A stretch of 46,124 nt of DNA, taken from IMG/VR virus record IMGVR_UViG_2547132255_000002. One strand, 5' to 3'. This stretch comes from a virus (taxonomy: Duplodnaviria > Heunggongvirae > Uroviricota > Caudoviricetes). Position numbers and translations under genes: made by a program. Shown here one piece after another: positions 19,340 through 20,258 of the stretch (the first letter of the stretch is position 1; each line of letters opens with the position of its first letter). Under the pieces are notes generated by a model. That model was given only the letters and a program-made list of their open reading frames with translations. It was not told the origin of the DNA and did no database searches.

Positions 19340-19870
19340 ATGAAGTACCCAACAGTTATTGTCAATGGTGTGTCCGTTCGTGTTGATGAGGATGGACGCT
19401 ACAACTTAAACGATCTCCATGCAGCAGCAGTTGCAAATGGAGAGGCTACAGAGCAACAGCGCCCAAGCCAGTTTTTGCGTAGCGCGCAGATAAAACGCTT
19501 CATCAAAGCACTGGAGGCCAAAGTGCAAAAAAGCACTTTGGAACAAATTCAACCACTTAAAATAATCAAAGGTGGTGCAGAACCAGGTGTGTGGGGTGTT
19601 GAACTTCTGGCAATCAGATATGCAGCATGGATTAAGCCGGAATTTGAAATCGAAGTTTATGAAGTTTTCAAAACGGTTGTCCGTCTCGGCGTTGGCGCAA
19701 TGTCCCGTCTGAATAGAATCGATCACATCATCAATACTGAAACCAAAGCGATAAGCCAGTGCGCAAGACAAATGGCTAAGTGGGGTGTTGGTGGGCGAAA
19801 AAGATTGCTTCATGTTGCACGTGAGAGAGCGGCAAATGAAGTGCAAATGTATTTGCCCGGGATGGTGTGA
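19340..19870 (+). CDS. KilA-N domain protein
   Basis: 176 aa; N-terminal VIVNGVSVRVDEDGRYNLNDLHAAA... resembles the KilA-N DNA-binding domain. Confidence 0.65.
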   Translation: MKYPTVIVNGVSVRVDEDGRYNLNDLHAAAVANGEATEQQRPSQFLRSAQIKRFIKALEAKVQKSTLEQIQPLKIIKGGAEPGVWGVELLAIRYAAWIKPEFEIEVYEVFKTVVRLGVGAMSRLNRIDHIINTETKAISQCARQMAKWGVGGRKRLLHVARERAANEVQMYLPGMV

Positions 19871-19975
19871 TTTCGCAGGTTAATCCGAGCAGTCCTTCAG
19901 TGAGGCTGCAATAATGCTTTATTCGTATGAAGACGAAGGGTAATCTGTAGACTCTGATTATCTAATGGAAGGTTT

Positions 19976-20182
19976 ATGATGGACAATTATTTTAAATCTG
20001 GCGATAACCGAGTATCTGATTCTGAGCACCAGCGTTTAGTGGCTACCAAAGCAGCTCTTGAAATTATCAAGGCCGCCGTATCTGCCCCTACCCATGCGAA
20101 AAACGTGTCTTATGATTTGGAGGAGGCAATAAAATATCTTCCACGGTTGACTGATGCTATTCAGGAAACGATTGGCAAATAG
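19976..20182 (+). CDS. Hypothetical small protein
   Basis: 68-aa ORF followed by hairpin plus T-run at 20236-20258. Confidence 0.45.
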   Translation: MMDNYFKSGDNRVSDSEHQRLVATKAALEIIKAAVSAPTHAKNVSYDLEEAIKYLPRLTDAIQETIGK

Positions 20183-20235
20183 CATTTGATTTTAGTTTTA
20201 TTATCTCACCTTAAATATGAGTGAGATTAATACAA

Positions 20236-20258
20236 AGCTACCTACGAGTAGCTTTTTA
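20236..20258 (+). terminator. Putative intrinsic terminator
   Basis: AGCTAC-ctacga-GTAGCT hairpin followed by TTTTTAAT. Confidence 0.5.

Follow-up and report, generated by a model that had tools for sequence, protein, structure and literature searches.

A structured leader RNA, predicted to pair with the Shine-Dalgarno sequence, precedes KilA-N and other Bro-network genes in prophages of Enterobacterales

Genes of the Bro network, including the KilA-N, Rha, Ant, ORF6N, and T5orf172 genes, are among the commonest poorly understood genes of phages, and they are often toxic. Some of them control prophage induction, and induction of Shiga toxin (Stx) phages sets toxin output. We describe a KilA-N gene and the structured leader RNA directly in front of it in a virus of the class Caudoviricetes, IMG/VR record IMGVR_UViG_2547132255_000002. 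The stretch analyzed, hereafter the window, comprises 46,124 nucleotides (nt) and corresponds to a P22-like or lambdoid prophage integrated beside ybhC. The gene is an ordinary one, already annotated, in a known mosaic slot. The leader is predicted to pair with the Shine-Dalgarno (SD) sequence of the gene and recurs in front of several other Bro-network genes.

The closest described systems are the c4 RNA of phages P1 and P7, which precedes icd/ant, and the IsrK RNA of Gifsy-1. In both, an RNA element lies on the same transcript directly 5′ of a Bro-network gene, as does the leader described here. In Gifsy-1, the Rfam families isrK, C4, and c4-a1b1 (RF01394, RF01695, and RF03163) are found directly 5′ of anrP, which encodes an ORF6N protein, and the read-through transcript of IsrK-orf45-anrP takes up two structures, of which one permits translation and the other keeps it silent (PMC4825925). 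Silencing by base-pairing near the ribosome-binding site and the use of alternative structures characterize these RNAs (PMC4825925); for the KilA-N leader, the same two features are predicted from its sequence. The class trait of a short complementary pair near the ribosome-binding site has a functional analogue here, in that the loop of the first leader hairpin, H0, complements a bulge at -35 near the ribosome-binding site of a Bro-network gene. The leader differs in having a terminator 5′ of the regulatory hairpin, with no discrete small RNA evident. It differs also in that the SD is predicted to be closed by a long intramolecular stem, the short complementary pair being a loop and a bulge within the same leader. 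The C4/IsrK models (clan CL00128, RF01394) find Gifsy-1 and not the KilA-N leader, and R1, the covariance model that represents the leader, gives no match in Gifsy-1. By analogy, the leader may follow the same logic as c4 and IsrK while belonging to a different RNA family. In work attributed to Citron and Schuster in 1990, the heteroimmunity of phages P1 and P7 reportedly involves short complementary segments that differ between the phages.

RNA-level translational control of a Bro-network antirepressor is also known from sar and ant of P22. There, sar is a separate antisense transcript over the start of ant, whereas the KilA-N leader is modeled as a sense-strand fold acting in cis. The window carries such a pair: sar (RF00262, 94 bits) at 39667-39734 on the minus strand overlaps the start of a P22-type Ant gene at 39705-40637 (plus strand; P22_AR_N and P22_AR_C), so that the prophage holds, in an immI region, a second Bro-network gene under RNA control. 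The leader would be the third independent case of RNA-level control for Bro-network genes, after sar and c4/IsrK, which suggests a general rule.

At the protein level, the 176-amino-acid (aa) product shares an N-terminal KilA-N domain with KilA of phage P1 and with the prophage-encoded BstA of BTP1, where the domain is KilA-N-like (PMC8585504). BstA differs in its length of 307 aa and in its C-terminal domain (PMC8585504); the protein studied here ends in a short ORF11CD3-like tail. It has neither a defence-library match nor the two-domain architecture of about 300 aa that define the BstA class, and a PADLOC search at E up to 1 gave it no match of any kind, the presence of a BstA model in that library being unconfirmed. 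BstA is encoded beside the prophage repressor locus, and the KilA-N gene lies in the late operon. The Rha and Ant genes of Stx phages stand behind the same leader; their DNA-binding domain is Phage_pRha or an antirepressor N-terminal domain, not KilA-N. As cited in one study (PMC4936722), P22 rha (orf201) is a late-operon gene whose misregulation in IHF mutants is harmful, and the Rha proteins of P22 and phi80 impair phage growth without IHF. Deletion of ant in the Stx phage Phi24B weakens induction (PMC3064807).

Comparison of sequences across loci suggests that an intrinsic terminator (T1), a structured leader of about 150 nt, and the gene together form a portable cassette. The preliminary description had placed a terminator after Rz/Rz1, and a hairpin at 19168-19188 followed by a T-run is indeed found there. 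Of 47 distinct loci, 41 have a terminator-like hairpin with a T-run 5′ of the leader, irrespective of the upstream gene; these were counted with RNAfold, as most T1 stems carry a G-U pair or a mismatch that defeats a strict perfect-stem count. In the 44 loci where an upstream open reading frame (ORF) could be recognized, it is Rz in 9, DUF6246 in 6, and another in 29, including apparent tail and HNH-like genes. In Enterobacter siphovirus prophages, a homologue of about 70% identity has the tape-measure gene on one side and a DUF6246/tail-chaperone-like gene on the other, in the orientation of the tail genes, and about 180 bp of the DNA upstream of it are homologous to 19160-19339 of the window. 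Essential tail genes lie 3′ of T1 in loci L008-L013, which implies that T1 must be read through in late antiterminated transcription.

A promoter scan at the tool threshold gave no sigma-70-like promoter on the plus strand between 19189 and 19339. With no promoter-like site from T1 to the ATG, the KilA-N gene is probably transcribed within the Q-dependent late operon. A candidate promoter picked out by eye, GTGACA-16 nt-GGTAAT, was rejected; it is without an A at -11, and its start would fall inside the ATG. Inspection by eye of 19140-19340 gave no convincing LexA box, CRP site, or IHF site. Directly after the KilA-N ORF there is no convincing terminator, and 19865-19935 folds like its shuffles (z -0.5). 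The signals that do travel with the gene are upstream of it, namely T1 and a leader predicted to occlude the SD, and they point to tightly restricted late-operon expression rather than to a gene that the lysogen expresses autonomously.

The predicted fold of the leader has two main parts, hairpin H0 and a long stem whose 5′ arm contains an anti-SD and whose 3′ arm contains a bulge and the SD itself (Table 1). The apex of the long stem (19264-99) houses the hairpin P3, which is missing from short leader variants. The H0 loop and the bulge are predicted to form a kissing interaction, and hence a pseudoknot. A further helix, named P1, joins the 5′ flank of the long stem to its apex; since it crosses the long stem, it would either represent a second conformation or belong to a compact pseudoknot.

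Evidence for this structure comes from two samples of leaders. The first was gathered by a 15-mer box, GCGCTTCACACGCGC, whose scan across viral contigs returned 120 loci; the box lies 115-133 nt 5′ of the ATG in 59 unique leaders. The second was gathered via the protein, is hence free of 15-mer bias, and comprises 45 distinct leaders. The leader of the window and four divergent variants adopt one minimum free energy (MFE) architecture despite differing helix sequences (z -1.8 to -4.6). When the 45 leaders were folded independently, 5 nt or more of the SD window were paired with the 5′ half in 42 of them, and the same 42 showed a 3′-side bulge, at -33 to -39, complementary to their own H0 loop. 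RNAalifold pairs columns 93-98, in the 5′ arm, with columns 185-189, in the SD region, and AU/UA and GC/AU swaps occur between them. The fold of the plus strand is more stable than that of the minus strand in 32 of 45 leaders, as measured by MFE.

Base pairs were counted on a MAFFT alignment of 42 leaders that was not fitted to any structure and has a mean column identity of 52%. The four core stem pairs of H0 are paired in 95-100% of the 42 leaders, with compensatory changes such as GCUC/GAGC. The kissing helix has 86.9% of cells paired and double-sided changes in 6 of 6 pairs, and its loop and bulge covary, with 12 or more compensatory variants. Among the loop/bulge pairs are UUCACAC/GUGUGA, CCACAU/AUGUGG, CUCACC/GGUGAG, UCGCAC/GUGCGA, UUCUCG/CGAGAA, UUCGCG/CGCGAA, UCUCAC/GUGAGA, UUCGUAC/GUACGAA, UUCUCC/GGAGAA, UUAGCAC/GUGCUAA, CUGCAU/AUGCAG, UGCCCA/UGGGCA, and CCGAAA/UUUCGG. 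The Watson-Crick run between loop and bulge averages 5.8 for own partners versus 3.6 for mismatched partners. Helix P1 is paired in 89% of cells, with 4 pairs changed on both sides (CG/AU/GC/UA variants), and P3 in 71%, with GC/CG swaps at two pairs. For the structure with the kissing helix and for that with P1 alike, 0 of 500 shuffles came up to the real leaders in percentage paired or in covariation score. As a control, the 3′ partner was slid by 1-3 columns, and pairing dropped from 72-83% to 27-53%; for P1, the slid controls gave 29-53%. A comparison of G-U with A-C pairs on the same alignment, made as a test of strand, gave 186 versus 156 and is uninformative owing to register errors. The structure of the leader is thus conserved with covariation, and the SD is paired in the predicted folds. 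In these models, as in SD-sequestering mRNA leaders, the SD pairs with an upstream anti-SD, and the pairing is conserved and covarying.

Table 1. Positions in the window of the cassette, the elements of its leader RNA, and the neighboring genes.
Feature	Position	Strand	Basis or match
Q	16902-17420		
Holin	17920-18243		
Lysozyme	18227-18703		
Rz	18700-19137		
Rz1	18872-19075		
Intrinsic terminator T1, 5′ boundary of the cassette: hairpin 19168-19188, then T6; 9 pairs (6 G-C)	19168-19192	+	Terminator scan
Whole structured leader RNA, T-run to KilA-N ATG	19189-19342	+	Covariance model R1
Hairpin H0: stem CGCGC 19207-11 / GCGCG 19219-23, loop UUCACAC 19212-19218	19207-19223	+	MFE fold
P1 5′ strand CACAGAA, pairs with 19286-19292	19233-19239	+	Covariation
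Long-stem 5′ arm, including anti-SD ACCUUU (19239-19244)	19239-19263	+	MFE folds, RNAalifold
Apical hairpin P3, UGCCGGU/AUCGGUA	19263-19282	+	Terminator scan, folds
P1 3′ strand UUCUGUG, in the long-stem apex	19286-19292	+	Covariation
Long-stem 3′ arm, with bulge and SD AAAGGU (19326-19331)	19300-19331	+	Per-leader folds
Bulge GUGUGA, complement of H0 loop UCACAC (19213-19218)	19305-19310	+	Covariation
Long-stem pairing CAG / CUG	19235-7 / 19337-9		
Long-stem pairing ACCUUU (anti-SD) / AAAGGU (SD)	19239-44 / 19326-31		
Long-stem pairing AGGAUGA / UCAUC.CU	19246-52 / 19317-24		
Long-stem pairing CCUUG / CAAGG	19254-8 / 19311-5		
Long-stem pairing AGGAU / AUCCU	19259-63 / 19300-4		
KilA-N gene, 176 aa	19340-19870	+	Pfam, phrog_129, RefSeq WP_000877023.1
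68-aa ORF, in separate mosaic module 19887-20268	19976-20182	+	phrog_5901, E 2e-26
Two hairpins, the second terminator-like (A-tract/T-tract)	20199-20257	+	Fold -20.4 kcal/mol, z -3.6
Small phage gene, inactivated	20323-20517	+	phrog_6581, positions 1-41 of 66 matched
HEPN-domain gene, 174 aa, HepS-like; neighbor, outside the KilA-N cassette	20579-21103	-	
terS	21131-21658		
terL, portal next	21655-23067		

With the covariance model R1, the leader obtains 132 bits (E 2e-29); it is present in a single copy in the window. Beyond it, the leader precedes genes of several domain architectures: KilA-N (170-176 aa), Phage_pRha with ORF11CD3 (about 180 aa), KilA-N with P63C (251 aa), Phage_pRha alone (228 aa), and T5orf172/MUG113 (188 aa). 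All of these Pfam families are part of the "Bro network" of shuffled domains (PMC10111431). In BLAST searches, 806 of 5,426 complete E. coli genomes carry the leader; it occupies 2,280 places in them, with a maximum of 8 in one genome. It also occurs in 312 phage records, where it adjoins genes annotated as antirepressor or Ant, including those of VT2-Sakai and other Stx phages. KilA-N homologues of less than 50% identity are without the leader. In sampled records, the stretch under a leader match carries only the adjacent protein gene or nothing annotated, and no RNA feature; the leader would therefore be an RNA family for annotation pipelines to take up. Rfam 15 yielded no family for the leader, whether the window and 7 divergent loci were searched at gathering score or 19000-21200 at E up to 10, and the literature search, whose limit was open-access full text, yielded no description of it. 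To judge by these limited searches, the leader appears to be the new part of the finding. What adds value beyond the KilA-N annotation is the structure of the upstream cassette: a widespread leader RNA, supported by covariation and predicted to occlude the SD and to contain an internal kiss, which functionally related, non-homologous genes have in common and which would have a regulatory role. A shared, portable leader with a hidden SD and a covarying tertiary contact would, as modeled, provide a mutable handle on timing and dose.

Our preferred reading, which we hold to be probable while leaving considerable room for doubt, is that the KilA-N gene is a Q-dependent late-operon gene in a portable cassette whose leader throttles translation. 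T1 would keep polymerase that has not been antiterminated out of the gene, such that no KilA-N product is made in the lysogen; in lytic growth, Q-modified polymerase would pass T1. The leader would then fold into the long hairpin, its dominant thermodynamic fold, in which ACCUUU of the 5′ arm pairs with AAAGGU of the SD, and the kiss between H0 loop and bulge would lock, stabilize, or nucleate this closed form. Helix P1, of 7 bp, could form before the 3′ arm is transcribed and leave a brief window for ribosome loading on the nascent RNA; in the kinetic reading that we prefer, refolding from P1 would then close translation. The net output would be a small, late, and throttled dose of a DNA-binding protein that is probably harmful in excess. 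A bolder version, which we regard as unlikely, takes the leader to be a hitherto undescribed class of pseudoknotted riboregulators with two maintained conformations, one with P1 and the other with the SD-occluding stem and kiss. Such riboregulators would gate Bro-network genes in late operons across Enterobacterales, Stx phages included, and the variable loop and bulge would be a specificity code that lets co-resident prophages or satellites cross-regulate.

Several observations weigh against the preferred reading. The lower helices of the long stem are out of register between lineages in the MAFFT alignment (27-73% of cells paired), and their support comes mainly from RNAalifold and from per-sequence MFE, which favors long helices by construction. 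In the MFE fold of the 5′ prefix, P1 forms with 7 of 7 pairs in the leader of the window, and it never appears in the full-length MFE; across the alignment, it is found in the prefix MFE of just 14 of 42 leaders, which makes the idea of a kinetic window weak. P1, the long stem, and the kiss might instead coexist in one pseudoknotted fold with another function, such as binding of a ligand or a protein. If the leader were merely a passive structure, the finding would shrink to a routine, annotated KilA-N gene. With regard to the product, the AlphaFold2 (AF2) model of the 176-aa protein is poor: the predicted local distance difference test (pLDDT) is 54, the predicted template modeling score is 0.42, and the central strands are unmodeled. 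The run used an alignment of 25 close relatives at 69-94% identity, and its model, too poor for a fold search, speaks neither for nor against the alpha+beta, APSES-like fold of KilA-N proteins; family membership follows from the profile match. Finally, some leader lineages (L008, L028, L069, L134-L137, and others) have a perfect TATAAT right after H0.

That hexamer bears directly on the label of moron, which the preliminary description had given to the KilA-N gene. Lambdoid morons, in the definition of Juhala and Hendrix, resemble the KilA-N cassette as extra genes between otherwise adjacent genes at several late-operon positions. A classical moron would be autonomous: KilA-N, with or without the 68-aa ORF, would have its own promoter and terminator and be expressed from the repressed prophage to the benefit of host or prophage. 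We consider this very unlikely. The cassette is inserted at many sites, in tail clusters and many other late-region contexts, and to this extent the notion of an insertable unit stands. A terminator-like hairpin with a T-run also exists, as proposed; however, it follows the 68-aa ORF, which belongs to a different mosaic module, and so is not the terminator of KilA-N. The TATAAT found in some lineages lies about 7 nt 5′ of the P1 helix with no recognizable -35 and aligns with 19224-19232 of the window, where its counterpart is a degenerate TATGAA; the hexamer is missing from many lineages. As a general promoter it was therefore rejected, being confined to some lineages and without a -35; in those lineages, it could be an activator-dependent or vestigial promoter. 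Weak transcription in the lysogen has been recorded for ant of the Stx phage Phi24B, in a putatively equivalent slot (PMC3064807). Against autonomy, the scan gave no promoter-like plus-strand site from T1 to the ATG, the terminator is 5′ of the gene with none directly 3′ of it, the SD is sequestered in predicted folds, and the G+C content of the KilA-N ORF (46%) is that of the phage (47%). With no promoter, no directly downstream terminator, and a native composition, the label fails.

The pairing of loop and bulge invites an alternative in trans, as in c4 and IsrK: H0, or a fragment processed from it, would pair with the bulges of other leaders and set immunity-like codes between co-resident prophages. 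The loop and bulge show an unusual diversity of sequence, with at least 12 types, and yet match in every case; E. coli genomes carry up to 8 copies of the leader, and the c4 and IsrK RNAs upstream of Bro-network genes act both in cis and in trans (PMC4825925). However, no terminator or processing signal follows H0, so that no discrete small RNA is evident; the window has no second H0-like hairpin; and the Rfam models C4 and isrK give no match. The stems of the long hairpin covary about equally, and the diversity may thus be drift with compensation. We judge action in trans to be quite unlikely. It is also conceivable, and to us highly improbable, that the leader is a recombination linker without RNA function, or that it encodes a 32-aa peptide translationally coupled to KilA-N. 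In favor of a linker, genes unrelated to each other stand behind one and the same leader, with the joint inside their first 10 or so codons (MKYPTV.VNG in KilA-N versus MNYPTIVNG in Rha); a mere patch of homology would not be expected to show compensatory changes in four helices and also between loop and bulge. As for the peptide, a 32-codon ORF (19228-19326, plus strand; internal ATG at 19249) matches phrog_16173, spans the long stem, and stops 14 nt 5′ of the KilA-N ATG; it recalls orf45, the small upstream ORF through which anrP is activated in Gifsy-1. The 32-codon ORF is conserved in the window-type leader lineage only. It was rejected as a real gene: ST104 and several other phages have CTG in place of its ATG, it is missing from short variants, and in other lineages, whose sequences were read directly, the frame from the internal ATG ends after 3-8 codons. 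With neither start nor frame conserved, the leader region is read as non-coding.

The gene behind the leader is assigned by profile. The preliminary description had named a KilA-N domain in the 176-aa product, and Pfam KilA-N (PF04383) bears this out with 64.6 bits (cut-off 23.8) and an E of 8.8e-18; the match covers residues 9-113 and profile positions 6-104 of 107. The RefSeq name is likewise "KilA-N domain-containing protein." A protein search returned 458 relatives, and the best 120 of the 458 have identities of 68-99%, with an alignment that for nearly all of them covers 98-100% of the query. PF04383 is present in all of these 120, which come from Escherichia, Salmonella, Klebsiella, Enterobacter, Citrobacter, Serratia, Dickeya, Pectobacterium, and Plesiomonas. 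The C-terminal third is conserved as strongly as the KilA-N domain, with invariant W148, G149, G151, G152, and R153, and the region of residues ~123-174 shows a weak likeness to ORF11CD3 of a Rha protein (hhalign E 3e-4), a domain that closes many Rha proteins. The best explanation from these matches is that the product is a Bro-network DNA-binding protein with a KilA-N domain and a short ORF11CD3-like tail. A profile search against the Protein Data Bank (PDB) also gave a MarR-family match (E 0.002), which is marginal and was treated as noise. The PADLOC and NCBIfam libraries returned nothing for any of the four ORFs of the interval. In the Salmonella phages ST104 (orf45), SE1, PS119, and MG40, an orthologue of about 91% nucleotide identity follows Rz, and sb54 is the counterpart in the same slot of ST64B. 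The annotation of ST104 orf45 was made by similarity to KilA of phage P1.

The interval that houses the cassette lies between Rz and terS, a variable region between lysis and packaging genes, and the 176-aa and 68-aa ORFs come after Rz/Rz1; on both counts the coordinates agree with the preliminary description. Breaks in BLAST coverage suggest that the interval is a mosaic of separate modules. The break near 19353 marks the joint with Stx phages, which share Rz through the first codons of the KilA-N gene and continue with Rha in the same post-Rz slot. Coverage breaks again at 19886, the end of the KilA-N module, and at 20268, the end of the module that holds the 68-aa ORF and its terminator; the last segment extends from 20268 up to terS. 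In relatives, the post-Rz slot is occupied by Rha, KilA-N, HNH, or none. The first ~9 codons are common to KilA-N (MKYPTVIVNG, window 19340-19370) and Rha-type genes (MNYPTIVNG, L021 11012-11040), which places the mosaic joint just inside the coding region.

The interval 19140-21130 is found at 100% identity in E. coli EC931 and SW4848. The EC931 copy (L001, NZ_CP049118 4200409-4214399) has the same KilA-N interval within a decayed prophage, which carries an IS5 insertion and truncated holin and excisionase genes, and in which the early region is fused straight to the lysis genes. Upstream in the window, a gap of about 500 bp between Q and holin (17421-17919) contains no conserved ORF and no tRNA gene (ARAGORN gave none in the window); the late promoter, qut, and tR′ presumably lie here.

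Downstream of KilA-N, the 68-aa ORF of the preliminary description is present on the plus strand. RefSeq lists its product as a hypothetical protein, and its sole phage match by tblastn is in Serratia phage OS31, at 45% identity; the module of ORF and terminator is shared with E. coli T28R only. The second of the two hairpins that follow, AAAGCUAC/GUAGCUUU at 20234-20255, is succeeded by UU, and 0 of 200 shuffles fold as well. The terminator hairpin and the DNA 3′ of it (20231-20319, about 90 bp) are conserved at about 81% in many Stx and lambdoid phages, where this DNA is unannotated, and in records that start at cos the counterpart is located near the right end. This stretch may be a shared terminator or module boundary.

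The stretch 20259-20578 had been taken as intergenic, a view that is not borne out, since it contains a phrog_6581 gene with a nonsense mutation. A 64-aa gene begins with the ORF 20323-20448 and is cut short where TGG has become TGA at 20446-20448; the in-frame continuation aligns with intact 68-aa homologues directly 5′ of terS in the Enterobacter phages ENT1 and CobraSix. A perfect 7-bp inverted repeat reported from the same stretch does exist, at slightly different positions (GGGAGAG 20439-20445, CTCTCCC 20457-20463), and extends to 8 bp if C20438 and G20464 are counted. It is inside the phrog_6581 frame rather than between genes, has the stop codon in its loop, and is imperfect in intact homologues. 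Inverted repeats of at least 7 bp with a loop of 3-20 arise in 26% of the sequences obtained by shuffling these 320 bp, which puts this one at chance level.

The last gene before terS, of 174 aa, is encoded on the opposite strand. At 38.5% G+C, this HEPN gene, and not kilA-N, is what appears to have entered the interval from a foreign source and to be expressed in the lysogen. Its family is rare: a collection of 5.8 billion sequences contains 16 of its clusters. The protein is 18% identical to HepS, a class marked by abortive infection against phages that a tail-tip protein triggers and that involves tRNA cleavage, and it is without a PADLOC or Pfam match. It has an invariant RNxRSH motif, a confident AF2 model of pLDDT 89, and the Rx4-6H motif and predicted HEPN fold of HepS-like proteins.

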